A stretch of 44,320 nt of DNA from an uncultured Clostridia bacterium (GCA_944386735.1 CALXCH010000003.1:1-44320); one strand, 5' to 3'; shown: positions 543 to 38,830, counted from the stretch's first letter. Program-made: numbers and translations. Notes: generated by a model not told the origin, from the letters alone.

Positions 543-563
543 AATTTAATATTTTCATCCTTT

Positions 564-938: not shown

Positions 939-993
939 TTCTTTCTCCTTTTTGAGCATATCTTTTTTATCTTAAATTTTTATTATTCACAAA

Positions 994-1027
994 ATGAGAC
1001 AGAAAAGGTCCGTCCCTACTGTCTCAT
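994..1027 (-). terminator. hairpin overlapping the stop codon of the 409-aa ORF (copy 1 of a repeated element)
   Basis: atgagacag (994-1002) pairs with ctgtctcat (1019-1027). A T-run follows on the minus strand. Confidence 0.5.
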
Positions 1028-2245: not shown

Positions 2246-2262
2246 ATTTTTTCACCTCTTAT

Positions 2263-3783
2263 TTATTTCCTATAATAGTTCATATTAAGGTCTTTTCCTA
2301 AGTACCAACTTCCAATGAAATCAACTTGTAAATAGTCTTCTAAGTTATATGCTGGCTCTTGCACAACTTTTCCGTCTTTATTGATTGAACCCCATTTTCC
2401 GTCTTTCTTTATTCCTGCATATCCAAATGAATTTTGGCTAGTTGCATCATCATATATATAGTCAACTACTACATTTCCATCTTTATCTACAAAACCATAT
2501 TTTCCATTCTTTTTACTTACAAATAATGTGTTAGATGGGAATATATCTGATTCTTTTTCTTCTTCAAACCTAAAATTATAATATTTATATTCATCATTTT
2601 GTCTTATTTCTATATACCCGTCCTCATCATCTAAGTCTGTTACCATTCCCGTTAGTTTTACTTCATAATTACTATCTAGTACTTCATTATTATAAGTTTC
2701 ATCTTCTGTTACATATAAATCTGCTTTTTCATTATATGTTATTCCTCTATATTTAAATTCTACTAATGTATTTCCTGATAAATCTATTATTCCATAATTT
2801 TCTCCTGTTTTTGCAATAAATATTCCTGATTTTGCTTCTTTTAAGTCATCATAGTTTGCATCTATTGTTTTTTCTCCTGCCAAACTCATTACTCCATATT
2901 TTTCGCCATCTTTATATATTACTCCATTTTCTGGATTTTTTAAGATAGCTGTTATCTCATCATAGTTTCCATTTAAGCTTTCAGTTCCGTCTTTTTTTAC
3001 AACTTTTTGTTTTCCCCCATCGACTACTACATAATAGTCTCCTTGATGGATTTTAGATATTCCGTCATATTTCATTTCTAATACTTGTCCATTTGAAATA
3101 TCTACTACTCCATATTTTCCTTCTGTATTTTTTACTATAAAGCCATCTACTGCTTCATCTCCTAAGCCTTGTATCTCTGCATAACTTGTTGGAATTATTA
3201 ACTTTCCTTCGTCACTTACAACTCCATAGCTACCATCTTTTAAAACAAGTATAGCATTTTTCACTCCTTGAAGTCCTGTAATTTCATCATATTCACATGG
3301 AAGTACTTCATTTCCTTCCATATCAATTAATCCATATTTTCCGTTATTTTCTACTCTTAATACTTTGCTATTATATGATAAATTTTCATTTTCATCCATA
3401 TTTGATATTGCTTCTATTTGTTCGTAATTCGTAAATATTTCTTGGTTTTTACTATTTAATGCTTTTGTTTTATATGTTCCATCATCATAATTTACATCAT
3501 ATGTACATAAGAAGACATCTTCTTTACTATTAGGTACTACTATCATTTCGCTATATCCTGGGTCTATTACAACTTTTCCGGAAGAATCTATTACTCCCCA
3601 TTTGTTGTTTTGGTATGCTGCAAAATAATCTGTACTTGTTACTACATTTTGTTGTTCTTTATCATTAGATAAAATACCTTTTAGCATTACAATACACATA
3701 ATAATTACAACAAATAAAATTATTACTGCAAATACTTTTTTTAGGTTTAATTTTGGCTCATCATATCTTCTTCCTCTATTCAA
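2263..3783 (-). CDS. WG-repeat (KWG-type beta-propeller-like repeat) protein, N-terminally membrane anchored
   Basis: Reiterated motifs: KWGVIDSSGKVVIDPGYSEM, GKYGLIDMEGNEVLPCEYDEI, GKYGVVD, GKYGFVDKDGNVVVDYIYDD, GKWGSINKDGKVV. An N-terminal TM is present. The SD GGGAGG lies inside the track ORF, so TTG 3783 is the likely start (track start 3804). Confidence 0.75.
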   Translation of the reverse strand: MNRGRRYDEPKLNLKKVFAVIILFVVIIMCIVMLKGILSNDKEQQNVVTSTDYFAAYQNNKWGVIDSSGKVVIDPGYSEMIVVPNSKEDVFLCTYDVNYDDGTYKTKALNSKNQEIFTNYEQIEAISNMDENENLSYNSKVLRVENNGKYGLIDMEGNEVLPCEYDEITGLQGVKNAILVLKDGSYGVVSDEGKLIIPTSYAEIQGLGDEAVDGFIVKNTEGKYGVVDISNGQVLEMKYDGISKIHQGDYYVVVDGGKQKVVKKDGTESLNGNYDEITAILKNPENGVIYKDGEKYGVMSLAGEKTIDANYDDLKEAKSGIFIAKTGENYGIIDLSGNTLVEFKYRGITYNEKADLYVTEDETYNNEVLDSNYEVKLTGMVTDLDDEDGYIEIRQNDEYKYYNFRFEEEKESDIFPSNTLFVSKKNGKYGFVDKDGNVVVDYIYDDATSQNSFGYAGIKKDGKWGSINKDGKVVQEPAYNLEDYLQVDFIGSWYLGKDLNMNYYRK

Positions 3784-3845
3784 GATATTTTCCTCCCTTT
3801 GCACATTTATACTATATCATATGTTGCACAACTTATCAATAAATT

Positions 3846-6290
3846 TTAAACTTCTTTTTTTCTAAATTTACATACTAAAACACTCATATCATCTTTTGCT
3901 ACTCCATAGTTATTATCTATTGCTTCTTCTAATATCAAATTAGCTATTTTTTGAGTATTTGTTGTCTCTATATCTTCTAATAAATATTTAATCCATAATT
4001 CTTTGTTTTTATATTCTACATTTGAATCCAAGATTCCATCTGAGCAAAGTACCATTATTTCTCCTGATTCTATATCTTTATCAAATGTTTGGATTTTACT
4101 TTCCTCTATTATTCCTGTTGGCAAAGAGTTTGATTTTACCATTTGAACTCTTTTTCCATGTTTTATATATGTTGGACATGCTGCACTTTTTATAAATTCA
4201 ACATTTCCTGCATACAAGTCAACTATTGCTATATCAAGTGTTGCAAAGCTTTCTTTGTTTTGATTAATTAGAGCATTATTTATTAAATCTAATGATATGT
4301 TTTTATCAAATCCTGATACTAATAAATTTTCTAATAGTCTTAAAGCATTTGAACTACTTGCCTTTGCCTCTTTTCCGCTTCCCATTCCATCACTTATTGC
4401 TAACAAATATTTTCCATCTTTTAGTCTAGCTGTTAAAGTACTATCTCCAGAAATCTTACTTTTTGATTTTGTCATATTAGCTGTTCCCATTGCCATAACG
4501 AACTTATCATCTGATAAGAAGCTTAGTTTTTTCCCTACCACTGCTTCTTCATTTAGTACTATTTTTTCTCCTAATACTTTAGTAAGTATCTTTCCTATTG
4601 TTTCTTGTTTTTCTGTTTCTAAATTTTCATTCAAATAAATTTCTATTATAAATCTATTTTCTTTCTTTATAGCTATATCTTGGACTTCTATTTCTTTTTG
4701 TTCTAATAATTCTATTATTTCTCTTTTTTCTCTTGTGTATTTTTCTTCGTTTTCTATATCATCTTCTAATCCTTTTGCCATACTTTCTATTGCTTTTGAT
4801 ACACCTTTTAATTGTTTTTCTACATTTTTCTTATTTTGTGCTATTTTCTTTTTCCAAATAAAGTCTGATTTTGAGGCTTTATATGAAACATTTATTGTTC
4901 TTACTATTTGCATGATATTTTCTTCTAGACGTTTACTTATTTCTTTATCATCAAATCCTATTATATAACTATTACAATCTGCAAATACTTTTAATAAATC
5001 AGTTCTTGATATTTCCTGTTTATCAAGTAAAAGATTAAATATTTCGTCTATAATTTTGCCATTTACATCTGCTATATCATCATATAACATATTATCTTTA
5101 TACGGCTCTAAATTATTTAGTAATTCTGATATAAATATTTTTTTATTTTCTTCTTGCTCGTTATCTGCGTTTTCCCTTTCTGCCGGCCCTTCACTATATG
5201 CCGTAGCCATCTGATTTATTGCTTCTGATACATTGTTTAGGCTTTCTGCTACTTCTTTACTTTTATTTAATGCCCTTCCTGATGTATATGGTAAAAACTT
5301 CGAATTTCCTATAAATTCTTCTAAATCTATTTGTAAGTTTTTTGGTACTAATAATAGTCCAATTGATGCAATTAATATTTCTTTAAAATGTATTAATTCT
5401 ACTGTATAGCCATTTGATACATATGCCAAGACAATATTTCCTAGTGTAAAACCAACTACTACTCCTATTTTTCCAAATCTGTTTAATATTCCTGCTATCA
5501 TTCCTGATATTGCATATGCTGCTATCATTATTGGCTCATTATTACTAATTACACCCAAAGTTACTCCTATTGTTACTCCTGATGTTGTTCCAACTAGTAT
5601 TCCATTTTTCCAACCTAAAATCATTACAATTAATATACTAAATATATTTCTTATACTAAAGCCATATATACTTGAATTTCCAAATGCTGCAACTGCTATT
5701 GCAAATAATAAGCTTGCTCCTATTACTTCTTCTATTGAAAAGGCCCTTTTTGTATAAAATTCCTGAACTACTGGTAATGAATTTACAAATATTTTATAAA
5801 ATACTAATGCTATTATTGACAATGTTATTGTACTTAGCACATCATATAATGTAAATACTGACATAAAAATTTTTATTAGCCCTATTAATAAACAAGCTAT
5901 AAATACGTTTTTTCCGATTTTTATTTTTTCATTTCTTTCTTGCTCATTATAACGTGGTTTTACTATAAATAATGTTGCAATCATAACTAACGCTGTTAAT
6001 AAATATTCTACTGCTCCTCCTACTCCAAATTTTATTAAGTTACCAAGTAGTGAAATTACCACTATCCCTAGTGCTGGAATAGAAAATGCCAAACAAGCTC
6101 CTAGCAAGCTTATACTAAATATTGAAAATTCTCCGCCTAAACTTACAAAGGACAACATAAATGCTACAATATATATTACTATATTTTCTTTTGCAAATAC
6201 ATTTCCGAATATATTAAATTTACTTTTTTCTTCCCTTATATCATTTTTACTATTTAAATCTATTGTGTCTTCACTTAAATTTTGAAACAT
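3846..6290 (-). CDS. spoIIE: stage II sporulation protein E (polytopic membrane PP2C phosphatase)
   Basis: About 810 aa. The N-terminal ~320 aa contain many TM helices. The C-terminal PP2C-like region reads AISDGMGSG...MVLCSDGILD...DDMSVLVCKF. SD AGAGGTGG precedes ATG 6290 (track start GTG 6299). Confidence 0.9.
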   Translation of the reverse strand: MFQNLSEDTIDLNSKNDIREEKSKFNIFGNVFAKENIVIYIVAFMLSFVSLGGEFSIFSISLLGACLAFSIPALGIVVISLLGNLIKFGVGGAVEYLLTALVMIATLFIVKPRYNEQERNEKIKIGKNVFIACLLIGLIKIFMSVFTLYDVLSTITLSIIALVFYKIFVNSLPVVQEFYTKRAFSIEEVIGASLLFAIAVAAFGNSSIYGFSIRNIFSILIVMILGWKNGILVGTTSGVTIGVTLGVISNNEPIMIAAYAISGMIAGILNRFGKIGVVVGFTLGNIVLAYVSNGYTVELIHFKEILIASIGLLLVPKNLQIDLEEFIGNSKFLPYTSGRALNKSKEVAESLNNVSEAINQMATAYSEGPAERENADNEQEENKKIFISELLNNLEPYKDNMLYDDIADVNGKIIDEIFNLLLDKQEISRTDLLKVFADCNSYIIGFDDKEISKRLEENIMQIVRTINVSYKASKSDFIWKKKIAQNKKNVEKQLKGVSKAIESMAKGLEDDIENEEKYTREKREIIELLEQKEIEVQDIAIKKENRFIIEIYLNENLETEKQETIGKILTKVLGEKIVLNEEAVVGKKLSFLSDDKFVMAMGTANMTKSKSKISGDSTLTARLKDGKYLLAISDGMGSGKEAKASSSNALRLLENLLVSGFDKNISLDLINNALINQNKESFATLDIAIVDLYAGNVEFIKSAACPTYIKHGKRVQMVKSNSLPTGIIEESKIQTFDKDIESGEIMVLCSDGILDSNVEYKNKELWIKYLLEDIETTNTQKIANLILEEAIDNNYGVAKDDMSVLVCKFRKKEV

Positions 6291-6568
6291 CCTTACCACC
6301 TCTTTATATTTGATAAGCTTATTTTACTACTTGTCCTTCGTGGTTTTTGTCTTTTCTAGTCTGCTAAACTAAAAAAGTTTTTTACATTTTTTTATATATA
6401 TTTTTTATTTTTTTCATAATAATTTAATATACGATTTTTATTTTATTACAGAATATCGAAAAAAGCAATATTTAGGGAAAATGTTCTAAAAAATAATTTT
6501 TATAATTTAAATTTTTTTATTAATATTAAACTCTCTTTATATAACTTTTAATAGAATAAAACCAAAAA

Positions 6569-6600
6569 AATCAGGCTAAATATTTCTATTTAACCTGATT
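6569..6600. terminator. bidirectional rho-independent terminator after the 3023-aa gene
   Basis: 14-bp stem with one mismatch (aatcaggctaaata / tatttaacctgatt), flanked by A7 and T8. Confidence 0.7.
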
Positions 6601-6637
6601 TTTTTTATGATTTAGTATTGTTTATTAGCTTTAACAA

Positions 6638-9600
6638 CTATTTTAATACTTTTTTCTTAATGAAGATAATTCCTACTCCTAAGATTATGAATGAACTAAT
6701 ACCTAGAATAATGTATGGTATGTAATTTAAGTCTTCACCAGTAGGAGGTGTTATTGTAATAACTCTATAGTCATCATCTCCACCTTCTTCTCTTCCATCA
6801 TCACTTGGTACGTAATTTCCTGGTATCGTATAATCATCAGGATTATCTGGCTTTGTTGTTCTTCTTCCTATTAATACATTTACCTCAATATCATTACCAA
6901 AGTCTAGATCATTTGCACTATTTGATAACACTTTAGATACTTCTAATTCTGTAGTATATCTTCCTATTCCCATATTAGCAAAAGCATCTGTCCATAATAC
7001 TTGATTATATTTCTTAATAGCATCATATGCGTCTTGTGACAAATATTGATCATTTAGTAATTGTTCTAGTTCTTCAGGCTCATATTGATGCCAATTCTCT
7101 GGGCTATTTTCTTTATCAAATACTAAATCATTTGACAAGTAATCATGTAGTCTCTTTATTCTTGGTGCTATTAAGCTATTTGGATCATCTGGAGTTCCAA
7201 AGATATAGTAATTTTCATCATTATAGTCTAATTCTGAATCACTGTTATCTGCTATTATTTCATATCTTACAGTTAATGTTGCTCCTTGTATTATTTCGCT
7301 ATCTACTTCTATATGAACATTTCCATCTGGTAAGAATCTTAAATGTTCAATTTCATCTACTCTTGGGTCTCCATCAATTAATACTTGACCATTTGCAAGT
7401 GTTACTTTTACATGAGATATTTGTTTTTCAACTTTAAGGTTTTGTATTGGTCTTCTTATTATACCAAAGTCCATGTTGTCAAATACAAATTTAAGTTCTT
7501 CTCCAAACTTGCTCATATTGTCTAAGTTAACGTCATAATCCTCTTTAATTTCAAATCCTCTTGACCTTGCCTCTATAGCTTTTATTGCATCATCATTTAG
7601 AACATTAGGGTCTGTATTTCCATAATAGTATTCTCTTTCCAATCCAAGTCTATCTTTAAGAAGGTCGTATTTACCATTTCCATCTATTCCAATTTCATCT
7701 CTAGCATCTGACCATCTTGCTGCATTTTCTCCGGATGTTTCTGATCTATACCACCAATCTGTATCTCCTGCTGCTGTAGATTCATTTTCTGGCCTATTTC
7801 CTCTATATATTGTTGACTTATACTTATCTACATCATCTATAACTCTATTTTCCGTTCCATCTGGATTATATATTACACTGTTATTACCATAAGTAAATCT
7901 TAGTAAGTATTTTCCTGGTATTACTCCAGAGAACTCATAATGTCCGTCGTTTCCTGTTGTTTTTGATGCTAGTTCTACTACTGTATCAGTAGCTGATGTG
8001 CCTTGTTGATATAGGTTTGCTATTTCAGATTCCTTTGGTTCCGTTCCTTCTGTTCCTGCTTCTCCCAATATACTTGCATTTGCTAAATCTACATCTGAAT
8101 TAGCATCATAAGATAATACTATTAAGTCTACTGTAACATTTCCTACTGTATTTTCTGTTCCTTGTTCATATTCACCATTACCAATTCTTTCTTTTACTTT
8201 CTTTGTTTCTCCAGTTATTGGATCTGTTACTTCTGTTCCACCATTTTCTAAATCTAGTAAATCTGCTATTGCCTCATCTTCCCATACAGTTCCTGATATT
8301 ACTCTACCTTCTTTTAATTCTAACTTAAATGCTGGTGCACTATCTGTATCATCCTCAAATGTAGTTCTATCTGTTGGTTCTGCTGAACCTGGTCTAGAAT
8401 CTTTATCAACTCCTGCATAATGTACACTAAATCCTGAATCTGAGTATGTTGAGTATGATCCTATTTCTGCGACTGCATCTAATGGATTATTTTCAAATTC
8501 CTCATTATTATCTAATACTGCATTTATTGCACTATTGTTTAATTTATATGTAACATATATATATTTTACTGTTTGAGGTTCTAGGTTTTGATTAACTTCT
8601 TCTATTGTAGCCTTGTTATAATCTCCTACAGCTCCTCCATCAGTATAATTATATGATGTATTTCCACTATCGTCTTGAATGCTATCAATAGTATACCTAT
8701 TATCATACATAACTATAACATTATTTACTTTAGTATAAAGATTTGTCGCTTCATTTCTTAATGCTATCTTATATCTTACATATACTTCTAATTTTCCTTC
8801 ATTTCCAGGTTGTGCATTGTATACTACATCTGATGAATAAATTGGTTGTGTATATTCTGCTGAACCATATTCATTTCCGAATTTTACAGCTACATTAAAT
8901 CCATCACCATATTGACTTTGATTTTCAAATCTTTGGTTATAATTATATGTATGTTCATAACCATTTAATGTTACTTTTACTGTTTCAATGTCCTCTACTA
9001 ATGATAAATCTGGTTGTTCTCTTTCCATAATTCCTAAGTTAATATATGGAATTTCTTCTTTTTCTGTTTTTCTTATATTATCTATTGTATCAAAATCGTC
9101 TGCTAAATATCCTGATTGTCCTTGACTTTGATATGCATCTTTTGTTGTTGCATGCATTATATATTGTTCATCTGTCATGTTTACTGGGAATTTTTGTTCA
9201 TCATATCCATATACAGAGTTTGGTCCATAGTTTAATGTACTCTTATTTTGGCCTATAATGTTACCATTTTCATCTTCATAATACTGGTCTGTATCATAAT
9301 TTAAGTCGTATGTTTTACTTCCCCCATCGTCTCTTGATTCACCAACAGGTCCTGTAGTTCCACTATGTGTTATTTCTGAATATTTTCTATTAAATTCTGC
9401 TCTTTCTGCTTCATTTTCTGCTGCTTTTGAGCTATTTGGATTGCTTGGTGTTAAATCTGTTAATGGTACTGGTTCATAACTCATTCCATTATAAGTAAAT
9501 TGTATATAATAGTTTGTTAATTCATCTATTAAAACATCTATCATTAAGTAATTTCCGTCTGCGTCTGTTAAAATCTCATCTACTGTTGTTCCTCTATTAA

Positions 9601-12600
9601 CAGAATCATTTTCATTAAATGTTTCTTTTGTCTTAAATGGAACTGGATTTCCATTTCTATCTAATAATTTCACAGTTACATTTGCAACTTTCCTATCCGG
9701 ATTATTTTCATCTGAATCTCCTTGTGAATATACATAATCTCTTTCAGATGTTTTACCACTTATCATATCTTCCCATACTGTTCCTGATAATTTAATCCAT
9801 TTTCTTCTGTTTTCAAAGTTTATAATATCATATTCAGCTGCTGGCACATTTGAAGGTAATGATTCTCCTTCTTTTCCTGTTGTGTAATATGATTTTCTTC
9901 TTACTACTTCTACTTGACCCTCATTAGATTGTTCTCCTGAGCCACTGCCACTACTCCAATAAATATAATTTGGATCTAACTCATAACCATATTTATCTAT
10001 ATTTATTGCTGTTTCTATAACTGTATACGTTCCTATTCTTATATTATAGATATTTATTTCTCCATTTTCATCTGTTATAAACTCTGTTGCATCCTCTATA
10101 TTACTTGTGTATTCCATATTAAAGAATTGTACACTACCTGTTACTTGTCTTATAGGATTTCCATTTGCATCAATTCCAACTACATATCCGCCTTCTCCTT
10201 GTAACTTAAAGCTAATATTAGGCATTAAGTTTTCGCTATCCTTATCTTTTTTAATAATCTTTAAGTTACCAGTATATTTAGTATTTTCCATGTAGTATAC
10301 GATTAATTTTCCACCTTCTGTAGGTACTGAAAGATCTATAAGTTCTTCTACATTTTGCTCATATCCATAATTATTATTTATTGTTTCTGTTAAATAATAA
10401 GTTCCTGGTTCTAAGTTTTCAAAAGAATATTTTCCTTCTGTTGTTCTAAATGATTCACTATAACCATTTGGTCCTGTTAATGTTCCTTCGATGTCTATGT
10501 ATCTCTCATAATCGTCTCCATTTTCATGTTCATCTAAGTCTACTTTTAATAGTTCTATAAATGTATTAAAGTTTGTCCACTCAATCGTATCTTCTGTCCA
10601 TATATCTTCATATTTCCAACCTTCACCAGCATCTTCCCAACCACCTTCAGCATTTTGGTGACGGTTTCCTGTATAGTTTGTTGGACATGGGTTTGTACCT
10701 ATATAATAGTAATATGCATATACATATTTCCAATAGTATTGTCTTACAGTTTCTGTTTTTCCTTGTGTTGCTGTTACACGACTTACTCCTCTTTCAAACT
10801 CACTTGCTGTTAAACTTATATAGAAAGTTACATTTCCTGTTCCTGTAACAGAACCTATTCCGTTTCCATTTGCATCACATAATGTATAGCTTAATGTACC
10901 TCCGTCTTTACTATATACAGTTATTCTATAAGGTTCCTCATTAGAATTCGTAGATGATTCAAATGGACCTAAAACATATCTATCTCCTACTTTTTTGTTC
11001 TCTATCTTATCATTTAATTTTGTTAATTCAATTCCTGGAGTAACTACTTCTGTTGATCCATATTCATAGCTAAAAGATGATGAAACAGAATAAGCATATT
11101 CAGAATCTGAACAATTTGCTCCACTCCAACCAGCAGCAGGATAGTCACCACTATCTGAACAAACAGCTGAAGATGTTGGTCCTCCTGAAACAGTAAATCC
11201 ATGTGAAGTTTGTCCATTACCAGTATAATGAAGTCTTATTGCAAAAACATTACTACATGATGTTATTCCTATTATTGCAAATACGAACATTGATACTCCA
11301 AATTTAGTTATATTCTTTATTTTAAATTTAAATTTAATACCTAAGAATACTAGTACTGCTAATACAAATAATATTATTCCTATAGAAATATATACTGCTA
11401 AACCTGTACTTACACCAATAATTAAATCTGCTTGTGAATAATCATCTTCTGATGTATTTCTATTTCCTGGTGTTGAATCTGTATCTTTTGTTCCTGTTAT
11501 ACTTCCTTCTGCGCTTCCTATTTCTGCTGCATTTGTATAAGTTCCAGCATCATCTTCTCCCATTGTTTTTGTTAATGTTAATGTTAATTCTTTGCTTTCT
11601 CCTGGATTAATCACTTGATTCATTAATCCTCTATTTACAAGCACTCCATTTTCATTTGTCCAATTTGTATTTCCATTGTTAGAGAAATCAAGTCCATCTG
11701 GTAAATAATCATATATTTCCTTTACTGTAGCTGGTGATTGTCCCTCATTTGTTATAACTATTTTATATTTTACTGAAACCTGAGCTCCTTCTATTTCTTT
11801 TGCTCTTATTTCAACCCTACCTAATTGTGTATTATCATATGATACCTGCTTTGTTCCATTTACAGTTGTAACTGAAACATCTGTTATATATTTATCTAGT
11901 TTTAAATCATAGCCTTGCCTTTCCATCAGACCAATATCTATGTTATTTGCATCTTTGTTTAAAGTTATTTGGTCTGTAAGTCCAACGTTTACTTTTTGGC
12001 CATCCAGTGTAATAGTCTGATCCATTGCATCTGAATTTATTTCTTCTGATACTCCACTTGCTCTGTATTGTGTTAATAAATAAACTGAAGTATTGTAATT
12101 AAATACAACCACATAATTTCCTTGTTCTATACCACTAAATGTATATCTTCCGTTATTCGTTGTTGTTTGCGCTTTTACATTATTTGAATCTGATAAATCT
12201 ACTAGCATTACTTCTATACCACTTATCAAAGATTCACTATCTTGTCTAGCTCCATCACCATTTGCATCATTCCAAGAAATTCCTGAAATAGAATATTTAG
12301 CATCTGGATCACTTGGAGTAGTTGGATTATCTGGATCTGTTGGTGTATCTGGGTCTTCTGGGTCTGTTGGTGTGTCTGGATCCTCTGGCTTTTCTTCTTC
12401 AGTATATGGAACAATTATATGTGTTACAACATTTGATGATTTTGTTTCTAATGGTGCTTCATATATTCCCTCATTTTCACCAAATGAATCTCCTACATCT
12501 ATTTTAGCTCCTTGTACTATTGCGCTATTCTCAACCTCTGTGTTCTGATATACATATCCTGCTATTGTCTTAATTTGGATATTTATAGTTTCTTGATATG

Positions 12601-15600
12601 GAATCCATGTATATATATCTACATTTGGTAACTTGTTGCCATCAGAATCCGAATTTGATGATTTGATATTTTCCGTTTTTGTTTTCTTTTCGCTATATCC
12701 AGCAGGAACTCTTCTACCTTCTGAATCTACTTCAGTTACTCTTTCAAAATAATCATATGTAATAGTTTGTGGTTTTACGTTTTCTGGTAGATAATCTAAA
12801 ATATTAACATATAAACCACTTGTTTTATTTTTTATTCCTGATATACCTGTACATGTTACAGCAATATTATAATTTATTTCCTCTCCATATTTTACCTCTT
12901 CACCCTCGTTGTCAGAACTCATTTCTATTACTACATTGTTAAATCCGTATTGTATTCTGTTTTCATTCATATTATATGTAATGTCTTTAGTTGTTACCGT
13001 AGCAACTGTTTTTAATTCTGCATTTCCATCACTATATTGTTCTCTAAGATATGTATCATCTCCTTTACGCACACCTATTTTATATGTACCACTTTTTGTT
13101 GCCTTAATTATAACCTCATTACCATTAAAGCTATAAGTATAACCTCCTAAGTCTTCTACTCCTGAAAGACCTAAATTATATATTTTTGTATCATATTCTG
13201 ATGCATAAGCACCTACATACACATCTCCATTATCTAATTGTTCTTGTGTTGGAATAAAAAGCTCTGGCAATTTTACTTTTATTGTTACTTCCTCTCCACT
13301 AGGGTTGTCTAAATTAATTCCATATGCATATTGCTCTTCTAAAACTGTGGCTGATCCTTCATTAATTATAGACCATAAAAATGCTTTTACTTCTCCTTGC
13401 TTAATTTTGTTGTTCAACTTATAATCAGATACTTCTGTATTTCCTATATAAGTTTTTATATTTGTTGTTATATCTTTTTCTTCTTCTAAATCTTCAACTT
13501 GTACCTCATAATATTTATTCACAGTTTGTCCGGCTTTTATTGTTCCAACATCTATTTCTGTTTCTTTAAGATTTTCATCAAAATTATATTCATATATTCC
13601 TGTTGATAAATCTCCAAATGTTGAATTTAACTCTCCGTATTTCAATCCATCTGGTATTGTTCCTACTATTCTTACATTATCTATTGGATCACTTGTTGTA
13701 TTTTTAATTTGTACATTATATTTTATAAACTCTCCTTCATATACAGAATCTCCATCTTTTAGTTCAGATTCACCTTTCATAGGAGTAACTTTTATTTGTA
13801 ACCCATCTATTTGTTCTTGTGTTGCAGCTACTAAAGCTTCTTGTTTTGCTATTTCTTCTACTTGTCCTACAATTGCATCTACTAAATTTCCGTCACCATT
13901 TGCATCTGTCGAAGCATTTGCATTAGTATCTTCACTTTGAGTCTTTTGGAAATTTTCTATTATAATTTGTTTTTCTATATTTCCTTGCTCAACACCACCA
14001 TAGTTATTTGTATAATCTACATTAATTTTATCTACTCTAGTTTCAACATCTGTACTTAATATTATTGATGCCGGTATTTTTATATTAGTTGTTATTCCTA
14101 AATTATTCTCATTATAAGCTGTCTCATTTCCTTCTATATTTACTACTATACTTGTAGTTCCGTCTTCTGCTGTCTCTACATATGGTTCTTGCATATTTAA
14201 ACTATTTGAATAAAGCATAGAACTATTTCCTAAAATAACCTTTTCTACATCATTTGGTAATTTTATTCTTATTGTTGGATTATCGAATAAGTTGTTTGCT
14301 ACTGATGAAGAATTTAATGAAATATCAAATGTTACATCATTTTGTTTTTCATTTGTCCAATCTGTATTATCTACATTTACTTCCACATTAGTTGTAGCGT
14401 CTTTTACTTCTATTGTATTTTCTTTTTCATTTCTGTAGCTCTCTTCTTCTACTATTTGTGTTGCTACATTATTATTTCCTTGATTTTCTTCTGTATTTAC
14501 ATTAACGTTTCCGCTGTTTAAATTTGGACTATTTAAATTTAAACTTCCACTTTGTAAGTAGTTTATAGTGTCTTCTACATTTACTTGTTCTTCTTTTTCA
14601 TTTATTCCTACTATAGTTACTTTTCTTGTAATATCTTTATCATCTAAATATGACTCATCACTTTTTATTTTCTTTACATTTTCTATATGTAATATTCCTT
14701 CATTTATAATATTACTTGTTTTTATAGTTATGCTATTTACATCATCCCCATATGTAACTATATATTCTCCGTTTTCGTCAAATTCTGTATTATTATCAAT
14801 GGTAGCAATAACATTATTATTTCCATCTAATATTTCTAAGCTACCATTTTCTCCTAGAACATTTAAAATATCATTCTTTAATATTTTTGTACTTTTATAA
14901 TAAACATCATTTTGTCTTACAAATGAATTTTCTTCTGTTATGTTAATCTTTTGATGAGCACGTTTATCACTTATTGTTATTTCATTATTTTCTGTATATT
15001 CTGTATCATAGGCAGTTCCATTTATAACATTAGATTTGATGTATCCATTATATATATCGCTTGTATTAGTAGCAATAGAAGTTAGCTCTCCAACATCTTC
15101 TGTAACCTTTTGATTTAATGCTCCTTCTCCACTTACTTCTCTATTATCATCTGTAAACAACACAGCTTTATATGATACATTACAGAATAAATCCCTTTCT
15201 GGCTTATCTTGTGTATAAGTATCATAACAAGAAATAATTATGTATTCATCTCTATCATTATCACTTGGTCTTGTATTATATATAGGTTGTCCATTTTCAT
15301 CTTCATTGCTTGTTCTTATTGTTGCTATTCCAGAATTAGAATCATAGCTATAATCTACATTTATATTAGTTGTTCTTCCATTTGTTGCTTTTGTACCTTC
15401 ACTAATTACTTTTACACTATTTGGATACTTTCCATCAATTGGGCTTAAAGCAACATTAATCTCTGAATTTTTTATAGCATAGAATTCGTCTCCATATTTA
15501 ATTCCCGTTCGTAAGCTATATTGTACTAAAGTACCTTTTGTCCCATCAGTGAGCTCATAATTTACATATTTATTAAAAACTCCTTCAAGGATAGCTTGTT

Positions 15601-15709
15601 CCTCGTTATCTGCTCCATAACTTGTTCTTGTAACTACTCTGCTTATCGCTATTAACATTATTACCAAAATAGCTAAAGCAAATATCTTTACAATATTTTT
15701 CTTTTTCAT
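6638..15709 (-). CDS. giant (3023 aa) surface protein; in-frame fusion of an A-type (DUF11/SdrD-B-like) and a B-type (SpaA/Cna-B plus SdrD-B-like) adhesin paralogue
   Basis: Uninterrupted ORF with SD GGGGGAA upstream and an N-terminal signal peptide. DUF11-like motifs (GEFIKYNVQIKNTTSDPIDNVRIVGTIPDGL), a PEDPDTPTD x2 linker, and SdrD-B-like motifs (GISWNDANGDGARQD, SGTVWEDMISGK, SGTVWEDEAIADL). SpaA/Cna-B-like region (GNLKIIKKDKD...GTYTVIET). Internal TM pair at about aa 1437-1490. C-terminal TPPTG, then TM, then KKKVLK. Confidence 0.85.
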   Translation of the reverse strand: MKKKNIVKIFALAILVIMLIAISRVVTRTSYGADNEEQAILEGVFNKYVNYELTDGTKGTLVQYSLRTGIKYGDEFYAIKNSEINVALSPIDGKYPNSVKVISEGTKATNGRTTNINVDYSYDSNSGIATIRTSNEDENGQPIYNTRPSDNDRDEYIIISCYDTYTQDKPERDLFCNVSYKAVLFTDDNREVSGEGALNQKVTEDVGELTSIATNTSDIYNGYIKSNVINGTAYDTEYTENNEITISDKRAHQKINITEENSFVRQNDVYYKSTKILKNDILNVLGENGSLEILDGNNNVIATIDNNTEFDENGEYIVTYGDDVNSITIKTSNIINEGILHIENVKKIKSDESYLDDKDITRKVTIVGINEKEEQVNVEDTINYLQSGSLNLNSPNLNSGNVNVNTEENQGNNNVATQIVEEESYRNEKENTIEVKDATTNVEVNVDNTDWTNEKQNDVTFDISLNSSSVANNLFDNPTIRIKLPNDVEKVILGNSSMLYSNSLNMQEPYVETAEDGTTSIVVNIEGNETAYNENNLGITTNIKIPASIILSTDVETRVDKINVDYTNNYGGVEQGNIEKQIIIENFQKTQSEDTNANASTDANGDGNLVDAIVGQVEEIAKQEALVAATQEQIDGLQIKVTPMKGESELKDGDSVYEGEFIKYNVQIKNTTSDPIDNVRIVGTIPDGLKYGELNSTFGDLSTGIYEYNFDENLKETEIDVGTIKAGQTVNKYYEVQVEDLEEEKDITTNIKTYIGNTEVSDYKLNNKIKQGEVKAFLWSIINEGSATVLEEQYAYGINLDNPSGEEVTIKVKLPELFIPTQEQLDNGDVYVGAYASEYDTKIYNLGLSGVEDLGGYTYSFNGNEVIIKATKSGTYKIGVRKGDDTYLREQYSDGNAELKTVATVTTKDITYNMNENRIQYGFNNVVIEMSSDNEGEEVKYGEEINYNIAVTCTGISGIKNKTSGLYVNILDYLPENVKPQTITYDYFERVTEVDSEGRRVPAGYSEKKTKTENIKSSNSDSDGNKLPNVDIYTWIPYQETINIQIKTIAGYVYQNTEVENSAIVQGAKIDVGDSFGENEGIYEAPLETKSSNVVTHIIVPYTEEEKPEDPDTPTDPEDPDTPTDPDNPTTPSDPDAKYSISGISWNDANGDGARQDSESLISGIEVMLVDLSDSNNVKAQTTTNNGRYTFSGIEQGNYVVVFNYNTSVYLLTQYRASGVSEEINSDAMDQTITLDGQKVNVGLTDQITLNKDANNIDIGLMERQGYDLKLDKYITDVSVTTVNGTKQVSYDNTQLGRVEIRAKEIEGAQVSVKYKIVITNEGQSPATVKEIYDYLPDGLDFSNNGNTNWTNENGVLVNRGLMNQVINPGESKELTLTLTKTMGEDDAGTYTNAAEIGSAEGSITGTKDTDSTPGNRNTSEDDYSQADLIIGVSTGLAVYISIGIILFVLAVLVFLGIKFKFKIKNITKFGVSMFVFAIIGITSCSNVFAIRLHYTGNGQTSHGFTVSGGPTSSAVCSDSGDYPAAGWSGANCSDSEYAYSVSSSFSYEYGSTEVVTPGIELTKLNDKIENKKVGDRYVLGPFESSTNSNEEPYRITVYSKDGGTLSYTLCDANGNGIGSVTGTGNVTFYISLTASEFERGVSRVTATQGKTETVRQYYWKYVYAYYYYIGTNPCPTNYTGNRHQNAEGGWEDAGEGWKYEDIWTEDTIEWTNFNTFIELLKVDLDEHENGDDYERYIDIEGTLTGPNGYSESFRTTEGKYSFENLEPGTYYLTETINNNYGYEQNVEELIDLSVPTEGGKLIVYYMENTKYTGNLKIIKKDKDSENLMPNISFKLQGEGGYVVGIDANGNPIRQVTGSVQFFNMEYTSNIEDATEFITDENGEINIYNIRIGTYTVIETAINIDKYGYELDPNYIYWSSGSGSGEQSNEGQVEVVRRKSYYTTGKEGESLPSNVPAAEYDIINFENRRKWIKLSGTVWEDMISGKTSERDYVYSQGDSDENNPDRKVANVTVKLLDRNGNPVPFKTKETFNENDSVNRGTTVDEILTDADGNYLMIDVLIDELTNYYIQFTYNGMSYEPVPLTDLTPSNPNSSKAAENEAERAEFNRKYSEITHSGTTGPVGESRDDGGSKTYDLNYDTDQYYEDENGNIIGQNKSTLNYGPNSVYGYDEQKFPVNMTDEQYIMHATTKDAYQSQGQSGYLADDFDTIDNIRKTEKEEIPYINLGIMEREQPDLSLVEDIETVKVTLNGYEHTYNYNQRFENQSQYGDGFNVAVKFGNEYGSAEYTQPIYSSDVVYNAQPGNEGKLEVYVRYKIALRNEATNLYTKVNNVIVMYDNRYTIDSIQDDSGNTSYNYTDGGAVGDYNKATIEEVNQNLEPQTVKYIYVTYKLNNSAINAVLDNNEEFENNPLDAVAEIGSYSTYSDSGFSVHYAGVDKDSRPGSAEPTDRTTFEDDTDSAPAFKLELKEGRVISGTVWEDEAIADLLDLENGGTEVTDPITGETKKVKERIGNGEYEQGTENTVGNVTVDLIVLSYDANSDVDLANASILGEAGTEGTEPKESEIANLYQQGTSATDTVVELASKTTGNDGHYEFSGVIPGKYLLRFTYGNNSVIYNPDGTENRVIDDVDKYKSTIYRGNRPENESTAAGDTDWWYRSETSGENAARWSDARDEIGIDGNGKYDLLKDRLGLEREYYYGNTDPNVLNDDAIKAIEARSRGFEIKEDYDVNLDNMSKFGEELKFVFDNMDFGIIRRPIQNLKVEKQISHVKVTLANGQVLIDGDPRVDEIEHLRFLPDGNVHIEVDSEIIQGATLTVRYEIIADNSDSELDYNDENYYIFGTPDDPNSLIAPRIKRLHDYLSNDLVFDKENSPENWHQYEPEELEQLLNDQYLSQDAYDAIKKYNQVLWTDAFANMGIGRYTTELEVSKVLSNSANDLDFGNDIEVNVLIGRRTTKPDNPDDYTIPGNYVPSDDGREEGGDDDYRVITITPPTGEDLNYIPYIILGISSFIILGVGIIFIKKKVLK
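12302..12390 (-). repeat. Pro/Asp/Thr-rich linker encoded by a tandem ~27-nt repeat (PEDPDTPTD x2, then PDNPTTPSDPD)
   Basis: Plus strand reads ...ggatctgttggtgtatctgggtcttctgggtctgttggtgtgtctggatcctctgg... Confidence 0.7.
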
Positions 15710-15886: not shown

Positions 15887-15949
15887 TACTAAAAGCATCT
15901 AAACCCTTTATTTGCGTAGCAATTACAAATGTTACAATTAAAAGAAAAA

Positions 15950-15980
15950 GAAGTAGAAAACTTTAAATATTTTCTACTTC
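15950..15980 (-). terminator. rho-independent terminator after the 1301-aa gene
   Basis: gaagtagaaaa / ttttctacttc forms an 11-bp perfect stem. TTTTTCTTTT follows on the minus strand. Confidence 0.7.
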
Positions 15981-16012
15981 TTTAATAATTTCTTTAATTA
16001 GTTGCCCTATTT

Positions 16013-19000
16013 CTATTTGTCTTTATTTCCTAAAGCTCTTTTCTTAATTAAGAATACTCCAACTCCTAAGATAACTAATGCTACTACTCCAACTATAGTT
16101 GGTACGATAAATGCTAAGTTATTACCTGTTGATGGTGTAACAATAACTGTCTCTGCCATGTTGTCGTCAATTTCTGTATGTCCACTACCTGGAATATAAT
16201 TTCCTGGTATTTCAGTTGGCTTAGCACCACCTGTCTTATCTAATGTTACAACCTCTGTTTCGTTATCCACATAAGTTTCATTTGCTGTTGATAATAATCT
16301 AGATACTGCTAAATCTGCTGCTGCTTCTTCAGTTGGTTTTAAGTTATGTTCTTTTAAGCTTTCTGTATAAAGAATAGTCTTTTCATTTATAGTAGAATTT
16401 TCATTATTGTATACAACCTCTGCAACTAAATCTTTAATCTCATCTGGTGTCTTAACTTGCCAATCTGGATTTGCTGCATTATCAAATGCCCAATCATTAT
16501 CTAAGTAATCTATTATAGCTGATGGAGTTATTGTTACAACGTCTCCTTCTACAATTCCATATTTATAGTAGTTTTCAGATAAGTAATCTAATTCACTTAA
16601 GTTTGTAGCTTTTACTTCATAACTTACCTCTAATGTTGCTCCTTGAACTATTTCGTTGTCTATTTCAAGTCTTACATATCCATTTTGAGGATTTGCAGTT
16701 TCTGATGGTCCCATATGAGTTAAGTGCTCTGCTTGTCCTGTTATATTACCATCTTCATCAAATGTTGCATCTATTATTACTTGACCATTAGCAAGTGTAA
16801 CTTTTACTGATTTTACTCTCTTAGTCATTGCTAATTTTTGTCTTGCTCTTTCTACTATACCAAAGTCAACATTATGAATTTCGTAAGTATATCTGTCTCC
16901 TGATGAAGCTGTATAAACACTATCATATTCTACACCAATTCCCATTGTTGGAGTTGTAGAATTCATCTTGTCTATTGTTGTTTGTGTACTATTTGTTATA
17001 TGCTTAATTTCATCATCAATTTTCTGTCTTAATTCATAATCATCAATAGCATCTGTTTTTCTTGTATCTACATCTTCTTTGAACCATTGTTTATTTGTTT
17101 GATCTCTTGAGCTATCATATACTGTTCCTTTATAGTTTTGTACTGTATAAGTGTCATCTCCCCAAGTATATGTTAATGTATAATCACCTGGTATATAATC
17201 TGTAATTTGGAAATCACCATTACTATCTGTTGTAGTAGTATACACTTTTCCGCTTCCAGTATTTTCTGTTAATGTAACCTCTACACCTTCAATACCTGGT
17301 TCACCATCTTCATATGCTCCAGATCCTTGTCTTATTTCTCCTGTCATTAATTCTCCTGAAGTTTCATCTAAGAATACTTTACCATCTAATTTTCTTGCAT
17401 CTGCAACTTCTAGTTTAAATCCAGGTGCTGAATCTGTATCATCTTGATATGTTGCTTCATTTCCTGGAGTTGCATTTGCTGGGTTAGAATCTTTATCTAT
17501 ACCTGCATATACATTTCCATCAGCATCAAATGTTGAATAAGAATTTATTTCTACTACATTATCTAGAACTTCTCCATCATTTATTAAGTTTACTACTTGC
17601 TCTCTACTTAATTGGAATTCTATATAAATATCAGCTGTACTTTGTGGGTCTAATCTAGTATTTGTATCTATTACAGTTTTTGCATATTCATCATTGTATG
17701 CTGTATCTGTATGAGTAAGTTCGTCTCCTGTTATACTTCCATTTTCATCTAAGGCTGTTCCAACTCTTAGAAGTGTATAGTTACTATCATAGTAGTCTAC
17801 TATACTATTTATTTGACTAATTAAGTTTGTAGATTCATTTCTTAAAGCTATTCTATATGTTGCATAAACTTTTAATTCTTTACTTGGATCCTCTTCATTT
17901 ATATATTCATAATCTGCTTTATAAATTGCTCTTGTATATGACATTGAACCATATTTATTTCCAAATTTTACACCAACATTAAATCCATCACCATATTCAC
18001 CTTGGTTCACAAACCTTTGTGAATAATCATATACATGTTGATATCCGTTAACTGCTACTCTTACATTTTGTAAGTCTTTAATTAATGCCATATCTGGTTG
18101 TTCTCTTTCATATAAACCTTGGTTAATCCATTTTATTTCTTCCATACCATATGTGAAGTGGTCCCAAATACTATAACCAGTTTCATCTGTATTTCCTGTA
18201 ATTAAGTACTGACCATTATTAATTAATGTTGCTGTGTGCTCATTTTGGTCTAAGTTATAACTTAAGTCATAAACTTTATTTCCATTTTCATCAAGAGTAA
18301 TACCTGTATCTTCTGTACTTCCTCCTTCTACAGAACTGAACTTTTTATTAAACTCATCTCTTACTGTAGGGTTTTCTGCAGATTTAGAACCATTGTCACG
18401 GTCTATGTGTGGTATTACATTTGTATAGGTTAATCCGTCATATTCAAACTCAATATAATAATCTTGTAATTTTTCAATTAAGACATCCATAAACAAATAT
18501 GCTCCACCATCTGCTGTTGTTGTTTCCATTACAGTTTCACCTGTTGTTCTATCTTTTAATCTTACTGTAATTCCATCTAGTAAAATATCTGCATCATCAT
18601 AGTCATTATCTTTAAATAAATCATTTCTATATGATTGTTTTCCTGATATCTTATCCACCCAAACAATTCCTGATAATTTTACATAGATTTGTTTGTTTGC
18701 AATTTGGAACTCTGTCGTATCACCTGCTGTTATGGTTGTTACTTGTCCATCAGTTAAGAATTCATATCCATAATTTGGGTTTTGAGTTTCATAAGCTGTA
18801 TATGTTCCTACTACTAAACCTTCAATATATATTTCACCGTTTTCATCTGTTATGAATTCTGTTGCCTCTTCCCTTGTATCTACATATGCTATGTTACCAT
18901 TTTCATCTTGTTTTATATATTTTCCAAGCTCATTATTCATAATATAGAAACCTACTCCAGGTAATTTTACTTCTGTATTATCTTTATTTACTTTTACTAT

Positions 19001-19918
19001 TCTTAATTTTCCTGTTGTTGGTATATCATAATCAAATGTTAAATCTATAGTCTGAGTAATTTTATAAGGTTCCCTAATTAACATGTTTTGTAAATATCCT
19101 TCTGTTGCTTCTAAGAACCATATATTTACACCTAATAACTCTACTTGAGATTTAGCTGTAACTCTACTTATTTTAGTAACACTTCCATCTATTGGTATTG
19201 AAATATAAAAGTCAGTTCCTGATTTTATACCACTAGCATCAAAGAAGTTTTCTGTTGTTCCAGAGAAGCTACTATATAATTTTTCTGATACCGGATTAGA
19301 ATCTTGGTCATACACATTTACTTCTGTTAATGTTCCTGCAAAAGTCCAATTAAATGGTCCTATCCTCATATAACTTTTTCCGTCTTTTTGATATGCCACT
19401 ACTTGAATATTGTCTTTATTAGTATTATCTGTTGCATTATCAATATTTGCAATCTGATTTGCATAGTTTATCGCTGCTTGGTCTGCCCAAGTTGGTTTTC
19501 CATGTGCACTTCCTGCAAATCCTTTATATAGTCCTGCATGATATTGTCCAACATTATTCATCCAAGTATATCCAAAATTCCATACACCATTTGCAACTGG
19601 ACCAGCTTCCTTTGGTGACCCATTATTTTGAGATAATATATATGCAAATCTAGCATTGTCCAAACTATCTATTGTCTTTCCCGTTTGATCTGTTGATTTA
19701 GTTCCTTCTATTTTTACATTTGATATAACTTTGTAATACATAAGACTTTTTATAGATTGTCCATGCTCCATACAAAATATATTATTACTACTATAATATT
19801 GGCTACTTGTTAGTGTAACAGTCTGCCCTACATAATATGCAGTTGAGATTGTTGCTATACCTAATATTGCTATAATTGTTGTGACCATAGCAATTGCTAT
19901 TTTCTTTAATCTACTCAT
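16013..19918 (-). CDS. B-type large surface protein (1301 aa): SpaA/Cna-B-like and SdrD-B-like domains with a TPSTG sorting-like signal
   Basis: Signal peptide MSRLKKIAIAMVTTIIAILGIATISTA. Motifs GKLRIVKVNKDNTE...GTYTAYET, KLSGIVWVDKISGK and LDGKVFLDETSGEL. C-terminus VTPSTGNN, then TM, then KKRALGNKDK. Strong SD AAAGGAGGGG lies 21 nt after the upstream gene's stop. Confidence 0.85.
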   Translation of the reverse strand: MSRLKKIAIAMVTTIIAILGIATISTAYYVGQTVTLTSSQYYSSNNIFCMEHGQSIKSLMYYKVISNVKIEGTKSTDQTGKTIDSLDNARFAYILSQNNGSPKEAGPVANGVWNFGYTWMNNVGQYHAGLYKGFAGSAHGKPTWADQAAINYANQIANIDNATDNTNKDNIQVVAYQKDGKSYMRIGPFNWTFAGTLTEVNVYDQDSNPVSEKLYSSFSGTTENFFDASGIKSGTDFYISIPIDGSVTKISRVTAKSQVELLGVNIWFLEATEGYLQNMLIREPYKITQTIDLTFDYDIPTTGKLRIVKVNKDNTEVKLPGVGFYIMNNELGKYIKQDENGNIAYVDTREEATEFITDENGEIYIEGLVVGTYTAYETQNPNYGYEFLTDGQVTTITAGDTTEFQIANKQIYVKLSGIVWVDKISGKQSYRNDLFKDNDYDDADILLDGITVRLKDRTTGETVMETTTADGGAYLFMDVLIEKLQDYYIEFEYDGLTYTNVIPHIDRDNGSKSAENPTVRDEFNKKFSSVEGGSTEDTGITLDENGNKVYDLSYNLDQNEHTATLINNGQYLITGNTDETGYSIWDHFTYGMEEIKWINQGLYEREQPDMALIKDLQNVRVAVNGYQHVYDYSQRFVNQGEYGDGFNVGVKFGNKYGSMSYTRAIYKADYEYINEEDPSKELKVYATYRIALRNESTNLISQINSIVDYYDSNYTLLRVGTALDENGSITGDELTHTDTAYNDEYAKTVIDTNTRLDPQSTADIYIEFQLSREQVVNLINDGEVLDNVVEINSYSTFDADGNVYAGIDKDSNPANATPGNEATYQDDTDSAPGFKLEVADARKLDGKVFLDETSGELMTGEIRQGSGAYEDGEPGIEGVEVTLTENTGSGKVYTTTTDSNGDFQITDYIPGDYTLTYTWGDDTYTVQNYKGTVYDSSRDQTNKQWFKEDVDTRKTDAIDDYELRQKIDDEIKHITNSTQTTIDKMNSTTPTMGIGVEYDSVYTASSGDRYTYEIHNVDFGIVERARQKLAMTKRVKSVKVTLANGQVIIDATFDEDGNITGQAEHLTHMGPSETANPQNGYVRLEIDNEIVQGATLEVSYEVKATNLSELDYLSENYYKYGIVEGDVVTITPSAIIDYLDNDWAFDNAANPDWQVKTPDEIKDLVAEVVYNNENSTINEKTILYTESLKEHNLKPTEEAAADLAVSRLLSTANETYVDNETEVVTLDKTGGAKPTEIPGNYIPGSGHTEIDDNMAETVIVTPSTGNNLAFIVPTIVGVVALVILGVGVFLIKKRALGNKDK

Positions 19919-19939
19919 TTGAACTTCCCCTCCTTTCTT

Positions 19940-38503: not shown

Positions 38504-38830
38504 AATATATCATTCTCCTCTTTCTTTTGAATTATCTCATATTTTTATCATAATCTAGAACATATTTTAATTCTTTGTTTACAAATAAAAAAATCAATCT
38601 CCCATAAATAATATACAATATTTTTTGTACTTTTGCAATAATCATCTACCTTTGTAAAGTAATTATAATATAGTTGTAATATAACCGTAATATAATTGTT
38701 GCATCTAATTTTAATTCTTTATTCTATTTGAAATAAGGCACCCACAACCTTACTAGCTTTAGACAGTGGGGTAAGGTTGCCAAAAATAGATTTTTTGTGT
38801 TACACTATCGATATGGGTACATAGTTATTT

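Follow-up and report, generated by a model that had tools for sequence, protein, structure and literature searches.

We show here that a giant gene of an uncultured Clostridia bacterium joins two types of surface protein that are also encoded separately next to it. The stretch of DNA analysed (GCA_944386735.1, CALXCH010000003.1:1-44320; 44,320 nucleotides, called the window in its whole length) carries three giant genes on its minus strand, encoding a protein A (1605 amino acids), a protein B (1301 amino acids) and, in a single open reading frame (ORF), a fused A-B protein of 3023 amino acids. On comparative sequence evidence, this 3023-codon ORF is a genuine gene that is conserved across many species. 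Its two halves are linked by a membrane module composed of an anchor helix, a basic loop and a segment resembling a signal peptide, and we favour, at about an even chance, the reading that a single precursor chain crosses the membrane in two rounds of export and is then split by signal peptidase I into its A-type and B-type adhesins. The fused gene has the following parts.

6638..15709, minus strand: fused A-B gene, 3023 codons plus stop (ORF analysis and translation).
15611..15709, minus strand: N-terminal signal peptide of the precursor, about residues 1-33, MKKKNIVKIFALAILVIMLIAISRVVTRTSYGA (read from the translation, with deduced boundaries).
11402..15610, minus strand: ectodomain 1 (A-type), about 1400 amino acids, with CLIPPER/DUF11 and SdrD_B stalk domains (Pfam, above gathering score).
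11402..11449, minus strand: pre-anchor motif EDDYSQADLIIGVSTG, residues 1421-1436, conserved in fused homologues.
11336..11401, minus strand: first transmembrane segment (TM1) LAVYISIGIILFVLAVLVFLGI, stop-transfer anchor helix, L1437-I1458, 22 amino acids.
11303..11335, minus strand: basic loop KFKFKIKNITK, K1459-K1469, predicted cytoplasmic, net charge +5.
11240..11302, minus strand: second transmembrane segment (TM2) FGVSMFVFAIIGITSCSNVFA, internal signal-peptide-like segment, F1470-A1490.
At the end of TM2: predicted signal peptidase I site between VFA and I, that is A1490 and I1491 (...SNVFA1490, then I1491RLHY).
11288..11299, minus strand: GGAG (11299..11296), TATCA and ATG (11290..11288, M1474), a weak Shine-Dalgarno (SD)-like match with an in-frame Met.
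6752..11239, minus strand: ectodomain 2 (B-type), about 1500 amino acids, an all-beta N-terminal domain of unknown fold, then SpaA, SdrD_B and CarboxypepD_reg-type domains.
6641..6751, minus strand: B-type sorting-signal-like tail, TPPTG (residues 2987-2991), EDLNYIP, YIILGISSFIILGVGIIFI, KKKVLK.

The ORF reads through EDDYSQADLIIGVSTG, TM1, KFKFKIKNITK and the signal-peptide-like segment ending in VFA before I, and continues for 1533 further codons. A sequence-only reading of the window had described this ORF and quoted its junction peptide, and both are present exactly in the minus-strand translation; as it had stated, the other two frames are closed, both being full of stops at the junction. 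The interval 11240-11413 that it gave does cover V1433-A1490, but the quoted peptide overhangs it by 6 amino acids upstream and 5 downstream. Likewise, the GGAG that it placed before the in-frame ATG at 11290 is there, but at a spacing of 5 nucleotides (TATCA) and not 7. The comparison with the unfused copy rests on three neighbouring features.

19940..24757, minus strand: unfused A-type paralogue, 1605 amino acids, ending ...LGLRTG, a transmembrane segment and IKRRKNKEEI (ORF, translation, Pfam).
19919..19939, minus strand: A-B spacer, 21 nucleotides, AAGAAAGGAGGGGAAGTTCAA, with the strong SD sequence AAGGAGG; the ATG of B shares the frame of the A stop.
16013..19918, minus strand: unfused B-type paralogue, 1301 amino acids, beginning with a signal peptide and ending in a TPSTG tail (ORF, translation, Pfam).

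The arrangement described for the unfused copy, a stop, a 21-nucleotide spacer bearing an SD sequence and an ATG, is found between these two paralogues, the stop being a TAA directly before the spacer, and the count of 18 codon-equivalents in the unfused against 16 in the fused copy is correct. The claim of an in-frame A-type and B-type fusion also stands, since the halves of the fused protein align with A and B, respectively: the first half shares 40% identity with the last 330 amino acids of A and the second half 31% with B over 1327 amino acids. A complete A-type anchor closes the first half; the basic loop and a segment like a B-type export signal come after it, and the topology with two ectodomains is self-consistent.

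The fused architecture is widespread. One genome per GTDB species was scanned, followed by ORF analysis, and 47 further fused genes with the same junction module were found in 41 species-representative metagenome-assembled genomes (MAGs) of uncultured Clostridia. Each of them is a single stop-to-stop ORF of about 2700-3400 amino acids that encodes an A-type C-terminal domain, then the module and then a long second half, so that the frame through the module is uninterrupted in all 47 genes. The 41 MAGs come from several studies and were assembled with SPAdes, MEGAHIT or IDBA, and the homologues reach down to about 30% identity. The window protein itself recurs unchanged on an ENA metagenome scaffold (L001), with DNA that is 100% identical over 15 kb save one intergenic stretch, and an allele from the same 90% cluster (P0227; 3023 amino acids, a handful of substitutions) has the same junction on four other contigs. 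More distant metagenomic proteins recovered by a word search (P0001, P0002 and P0009; 51-31% identity) also span the junction. When 1.84 billion cluster representatives were searched with HMMER, some 46 among the 150 best, which stand for clusters at 50% identity, crossed the junction in one alignment, many of these proteins being 2.7-3.2 thousand amino acids long. A codon-level analysis of ten close homologues gave ratios of nonsynonymous to synonymous polymorphism (pN/pS) of 0.22 for the loop, the lowest in the module, 0.44 for the motif and 0.51 for TM1, compared to about 1.1 for a deliberately unalignable downstream stretch that served as control. The low value of the loop indicates that it is translated in the junction frame and is under purifying selection. 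The junction contains no long homopolymer.

The anatomy of the module was parsed with a strict pattern in 29 fused genes, window included. TM1 consists of 22-23 uncharged residues in all 29 (mean best-19 Kyte-Doolittle hydropathy 2.95), and the loop has 9-18 amino acids and a net charge of +3 to +7 in 28 of them; in the remaining gene (L043) the automated TM2 call failed, and the loop read by eye is KNKKINKTIK. TM2 is a different kind of segment, with a hydrophobic core of 14.8 amino acids on average versus 22.6 for TM1 and a best-19 hydropathy of 1.83 versus 2.95. Its core is followed by a polar stretch that ends in a small-x-small pattern (VFA, VYA, VAA, AIA, VFG, VSA). A simple cleavage-site rule (A, V, S, T or I at -3, A or G at -1, no Pro at +1, 4-10 residues past the core) finds a site in 29/29 fused genes versus 25% of random windows of the same proteins, in which Ala makes up 4% and Gly 8% of the residues. 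Residues 1459-1490 of the window protein thus combine a charged n-region, a short h-region and a polar c-region with small residues at -3 and -1. What this segment lacks is the N-terminal position of a signal peptide: it starts at residue 1459 of 3023, and hence it could be an internal signal peptide only, as has been proposed for the Zmp proteases of streptococci.

The loop appears to be composed of two parts. Its first half resembles the K/R tail of unfused A proteins, and its second half (KKITKIG, KISKLG, KLGKIS) recalls the n-regions with which the signal peptides of unfused B proteins begin (MKNKIIKI.., MKKLLKYI..). In the closest clade the loop is nearly invariant (IKFKFKIKKITKIG), with lysines alternating with hydrophobic residues. 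Its conservation exceeds what the positive-inside rule needs, and the loop may bind lipid head groups, SecA or the signal recognition particle, or a partner protein. An AlphaFold2 model of residues 1290-1520 (43-row alignment, mean predicted local distance difference test score (pLDDT) 77) shows a CLIPPER-type sandwich with YSQADLIIGVS (residues 1424-1434) as its last beta-strand, at moderate confidence, then a helix of residues 1437-1460, a three-residue turn and a second helix of residues 1464-1485, the latter at low confidence.

Both halves of the fused protein are, judged by their domain content, ordinary members of the fibrillar-adhesin and pilin-like class. A, B and the fused protein all carry fibrillar-adhesin stalk domains, with Pfam matches to SdrD_B (53.5 bits, cut-off 29.7), SpaA (47.1 bits, cut-off 23.1) and DUF11/CLIPPER (42.1 bits, cut-off 24.6); a match to NCBIfam TIGR01451 was also found. 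The CLIPPER name and the isopeptide bond of this domain have been described (bioRxiv 10.1101/2025.04.25.650565). A profile of the N-terminal region of B matches 6fwv, 3kpt, 2ww8 and others via their SpaA-type domains. Directly past the predicted cleavage site, the N-terminal domain of the B part (10370..11239, minus strand) contains a Cys and a Gln, both near-invariant and spaced by about 168 residues (29 sequences), in the motifs F.GGP....C and HQ, an arrangement that recalls thioester adhesin domains. The alignment of the Gln with ..TNLQAI.. of 6fwv is weak, and the Pfam thioester domain (TED) gave no match in this domain. AlphaFold2 models the domain as all-beta (pLDDT 70, 3-sequence alignment) with the Cys and the Gln in low-confidence segments, and a Foldseek search of this model against the PDB returned nothing with E<0.001. 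Searching the PDB sequences with the whole fused protein (phmmer) gave no match, and a word-indexed homologue search with the divergent B N-terminal region returned P0001 alone.

The reading that we favour, a genuine two-ectodomain precursor that is processed, had been among the options of the sequence-only reading, and the comparative data speak for it. The N-terminal signal peptide would direct ectodomain 1 (about 1400 amino acids) across the membrane via Sec. TM1 would then halt the transfer, and the loop would stay cytoplasmic in accordance with the positive-inside rule. TM2 would restart translocation as an internal signal peptide, so that ectodomain 2 (about 1500 amino acids) is exported until the final tail of TPPTG, hydrophobic segment and KKK halts transfer again. 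Signal peptidase I would cut after VFA1490 and free B with an N-terminus of its own. After the cut, A would stay fixed in the membrane by TM1, together with the loop and the TM2 remnant, and the C-terminal tail of B would serve as its own anchor, probably by way of a sortase acting on xPxTG. One transcript, translated as one chain, would in this way yield A and B adhesin at a 1:1 ratio and at the same membrane site. Covalent coupling would replace the translational, SD-based coupling of the A-B pair, and internal initiation would be unneeded.

Several points weigh against this reading. The evidence is wholly computational, and the bacteria are uncultured. The cleavage-site test is a simple rule and not a trained predictor, and the 29 sequences are related, so that 29/29 does not amount to 29 independent trials. 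In the AlphaFold2 model TM2 has a pLDDT of 53-70, and everything past residue 1487 is unmodelled. The pN/pS of TM2 and its c-region is 0.81, which is usual for signal peptides and would fit a mere hydrophobic spacer as well. A pattern search found no sortase gene in the window or in any of 79 loci. Finally, four fused-type genes (L032, L051, L052 and L060) are interrupted, downstream inside the B N-terminal domain and not at the junction.

The alternative that survives best is that TM2 is never cut. It would then be a permanent helix, and the 3023-amino-acid protein would display two ectodomains of about 1500 amino acids each from the membrane hairpin, with a third anchor at the C-terminus. 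This possibility draws on the same topology evidence as the cleavage model; AlphaFold2 packs the TM2 helix beside TM1, and cleavage itself is a prediction only. However, the TM2 core of about 15 amino acids is short compared to the 22-23 of TM1, and a permanent helix needs no polar c-region with small residues at -3 and -1, a feature that sets all of the parsed genes apart from their controls. An uncleaved protein would furthermore pin the B N-terminal domain at the membrane under the wall, whereas in unfused B this domain is presumably a free tip. We regard a permanent helix as unlikely.

A further possibility concerns the anchoring of the A part. Signal peptidase might cut after TM2 and, in addition, a sortase might cut ..GVSTG between T and G and link ectodomain 1 to peptidoglycan, the hairpin of G, TM1, loop and TM2 being discarded. 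The product would be a 1:1 pair of wall-linked adhesins from a Sec substrate of about 3000 amino acids, cut by signal peptidase I and by sortase at a Pro-less [SG][VI]xTG, and we hold this outcome to be improbable. Its appeal lies in the motif. In 28/28 fused homologues it reads EDD[YF]SxAx[LIV]II[SG][VI][SG]TG, an extreme conservation, and the invariant TG stands directly before a hydrophobic segment (22-23 amino acids) and a K-rich loop, which is the layout of a sorting signal. The layout is also homologous to that of the B tail (PGN..DD..A..[IV][IV].x.TG), which does have xPxTG, and Zmp proteases provide a precedent with an internal LPXTG before two transmembrane segments. C. difficile SrtB is reported to recognize a sortase motif without Pro (NVQTG). 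However, position 2 of the A motif is V (24) or I (4) and in none of the 28 homologues Pro. No spacer separates TG from the TM1 helix, the motif is internal in the protein, and YSQADLIIGVS is modelled in the last beta-strand, where it would be hidden from a sortase. GVSTG thus departs from an LPXTG signal in its position 2, in not being C-terminal and in its modelled strand. That the motif, called sorting-like in the sequence-only reading, is a true sortase site is doubtful, and its cleavage by a sortase is a minority possibility.

The C-terminal tails of the B-type proteins look different. Their logo (56 tails) reads ..DDxMAETV[IV][IV]TP[PNAS]TG[ED]N; a spacer of 6-7 residues, a hydrophobic stretch and terminal K/R residues come next, and position 2 is Pro in 45/56. 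By its sequence this tail is a credible xPxTG sorting signal, and sortase anchoring of the B part is likely. A TLxTC-type sortase pattern, run over all ORFs of the window and the 79 loci, gave spurious antisense matches only, and an NCBIfam search for a named C-terminal sorting domain found none; that no sortase gene turned up near any of the loci also speaks against cleavage of the A motif. The window does encode, at 36065..38503 on the minus strand, a protein of 812 amino acids with a transglutaminase-like core, about five repeats of about 90 amino acids and a canonical LPKTG, hydrophobic and basic end. This canonical LPKTG protein makes it very probable that a sortase is encoded elsewhere in the genome. 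If the double cut were true, it would be an undescribed mode of surface-protein biogenesis in Gram-positive bacteria with a new sortase recognition motif.

The sequence-only reading had also considered that two products arise by internal initiation at 11290 and had noted the SD and ATG as retained; B would then be made separately from M1474 (GGAG-N5-ATG), and the read-through fusion would be a by-product. The GGAG does lie 5 nucleotides from an in-frame ATG just where a B-type signal peptide would start, and in-frame translation of the spacer of the unfused pair yields KKGGEVQM, similar to TKFGVSM of the fused copy. The feature is, however, not conserved: an in-frame ATG with an SD-like match of at least 4 nucleotides, 4-12 nucleotides upstream, is present in 3/29 fused genes, window included, and 15/29 have no in-frame ATG, GTG or TTG in the junction stretch at all. 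The counterpart of M1474 is Ile in P0001 and is absent in P0009. Nor does the match rise above background, as 8/65 internal in-frame ATGs (12%) in the three window genes have an equally good SD-like match of at least 4 nucleotides; the true starts of A and B have 7-8-nucleotide SD matches. The codons of the conserved K-x-G-[LV] account for the GGAG. All lysines lie upstream of M1474, so that a product begun there would have no charged n-region, and the protein-level constraint on the loop also argues against a start downstream of it. Thus, neither a functional role of the SD and ATG nor the reading of two products is borne out. Internal initiation is, as far as the gene comparison goes, not the conserved mechanism, and we give very little credence to it as the source of B, even if it may occur at a low level in this strain.

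Equally far down we place the possibility that this strain processes B like a lipoprotein. Signal peptidase II would then cleave ahead of C1485, which lies inside the TM2 segment upstream of SNVFA1490, and B would be lipid-anchored at its N-terminus. The sequence IGITSC, followed by S, fits the lipobox [LVI][ASTVI][GAS]C, and four of ten close relatives (the window gene, L003, L008 and L009) have a Cys at this position. However, the Cys is missing from most fused homologues, the three other carriers have T at -1 (VTC, FTC, TTC) and thus a poor lipobox, and a site with A or G at -1 follows five residues on in all 29 genes, which makes such a cut very unlikely. Hardly tenable, finally, is an artefact or a recent pseudogenising fusion, in which the true stop between A and B was lost by an indel or a base error, as the sequence-only reading had considered: the unfused paralogues are set apart by one in-frame stop, so that a single substitution could fuse such a pair, and the junction tract is A/T-rich, but a hidden stop is refuted by the same junction in the allele on four contigs, in the 47 genes found in 41 further assemblies from various assemblers and in tens of protein clusters, and by the constraint on the loop codons in a tract free of long homopolymers.

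The likeness of the in-frame spacer to the fused sequence makes it plausible that the loop descends from an A tail, stop and spacer turned coding, which would be the direction of fusion. In a midpoint-rooted neighbour-joining tree of the 200-amino-acid A C-terminal domain, the true unfused A genes, window A included, form one clade nested among fused lineages, and secondary fission is therefore possible. Four seemingly unfused members of fused clades turned out to be the fused-type genes broken further downstream mentioned above; in L032 the broken reading frames are 416..4744 and 4698..9014. These interrupted copies may be decaying genes or frameshift errors of the assembly. The in-frame arrangement of A stop and B start in the unfused pair was considered as a special feature and rejected, since 9/24 unfused A-B pairs in other genomes are in frame, which is the chance level. 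Fused genes also occur in tandem: CALXZU010000084.1 has three fused copies (L005, L002, L011) and CALXFB010000054.1 has two (L003/L004). As in the window, many fused genes follow the 3' end of a B-type gene. By this gene order the fused locus is an expanding paralogous array.

The window has a G+C content of 28.9%, and spoIIE, mreBCD, a PBP2-type transpeptidase gene, minC, mecA and radC mark it as chromosomal DNA of a spore-forming bacterium of Clostridia type. Two terminator-like hairpins flank the fused gene.

15947..15983, minus strand: terminator-like hairpin 3' of the A-B operon.
6564..6605, minus strand: terminator-like hairpin 3' of the fused gene.

The hairpin after the A-B operon indicates that the fused gene is a separate transcription unit. 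The hairpin behind the fused gene (6605..6564) overlaps the only difference between the window and scaffold L001, a stretch just 3' of the gene (6476..6631) that has 156 nucleotides in the window and 100 in L001. A promoter scan was uninformative in DNA of 29% GC (114 sites versus 130 expected), and Rfam and tRNA scans of the window gave no match. A gene for a PD-(D/E)XK-family transposase (PF12784; 26763..27635, plus strand) lies between the PBP2-type gene and minC on the strand opposite to its neighbours. The region 38500..40300 comprises 1.8 kb with no long ORF, tRNA or Rfam match; a 78-amino-acid ORF within it (38831..39067, plus strand) resembles, as judged by eye, a fragment of an IS200/IS605-type transposase.

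The translationally coupled A-B pairs, namely that of the window and 24 in other MAGs, encode the two protein types in the order seen in the fused gene. In the fused protein, TM1 with the front half of the loop takes the place of the A tail, and the rear half of the loop with TM2 that of the B signal peptide. In contrast, the stop, the 15-27-nucleotide spacer with AAAGGAGG and the ATG of the pairs are not conserved in the fused genes. Fused and unfused paralogues adjoin in one genome and provide a natural matched pair for the study of stop-transfer and re-initiation by Sec in Gram-positive bacteria. In their B tails the proteins resemble substrates of C. difficile SrtB, which have (S/P)PXTG-type motifs: TP[PNAS]TG with spacer, hydrophobic segment and K/R fits xPxTG, unlike the internal A motif, which has no Pro. 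With fibrillar adhesins and pilins such as BcpA, RrgA and the B. anthracis protein 6FWV they share isopeptide-type stalk domains (CLIPPER/DUF11, SdrD_B, SpaA/CnaB-type). Fibrillar adhesins are laid out as signal peptide, stalk and C-terminal anchor (bioRxiv 10.1101/2025.04.25.650565). Unlike the known ones, with a single signal peptide and anchor, the fused gene strings two complete units together via a membrane hairpin, and we found no description of two such proteins fused via an anchor and signal-peptide hairpin in the open-access literature.

The sole analogue that we found in this literature is a short module at the N-terminus of the Zmp proteases of streptococci (IgA1 protease/ZmpA, ZmpB, ZmpC, ZmpD). 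In these, an LPXTG is followed by two transmembrane segments, the second of which has been proposed to be a 'second signal peptide' that is cleaved by signal peptidase and exports the large downstream part (PMC3518915). The order of stop-transfer and internal signal peptide is thus alike. However, a complete adhesin of about 1400 amino acids precedes the motif here, compared to a short N-terminal piece in Zmp; the motif is [SG][VI]xTG with no Pro, compared to a true LPXTG; the downstream part has a C-terminal xPxTG tail of its own; and the proteins share no sequence similarity. No peptidase family is among the Pfam and NCBIfam matches, and hence no M26 zinc-metalloprotease domain (HEXXH). By this comparison, the relation to Zmp is one of analogy in the anchoring logic and not of membership. 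New is that the logic of stop-transfer and internal signal joins two complete adhesins of about 1500 residues and is kept in at least 41 species-level genomes. The carriers are uncultured Clostridia of animal and human guts, often with several tandem copies per genome. For annotation this means that ORFs of about 3000 amino acids named "SdrD B-like/DUF11" with an internal pair of transmembrane segments are not mis-assemblies, and the architecture should be of interest to research on secretion and surface display in Gram-positive bacteria.

To our knowledge, bacteria very rarely have internal cleavable signal peptides, although these are textbook knowledge for the polyproteins of viruses and eukaryotes. 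Membrane polyproteins of this kind, for example the structural region of flaviviruses, alternate stop-transfer and signal segments and are separated by the host signal peptidase. The fused adhesins differ from them in belonging to another domain of life, in sharing no homology, in having one internal junction and in being surface adhesins of Gram-positive type. If the processing model holds, bacteria would likewise use membrane-threaded polyproteins, in this case to fix the stoichiometry and the co-localisation of their surface proteins.

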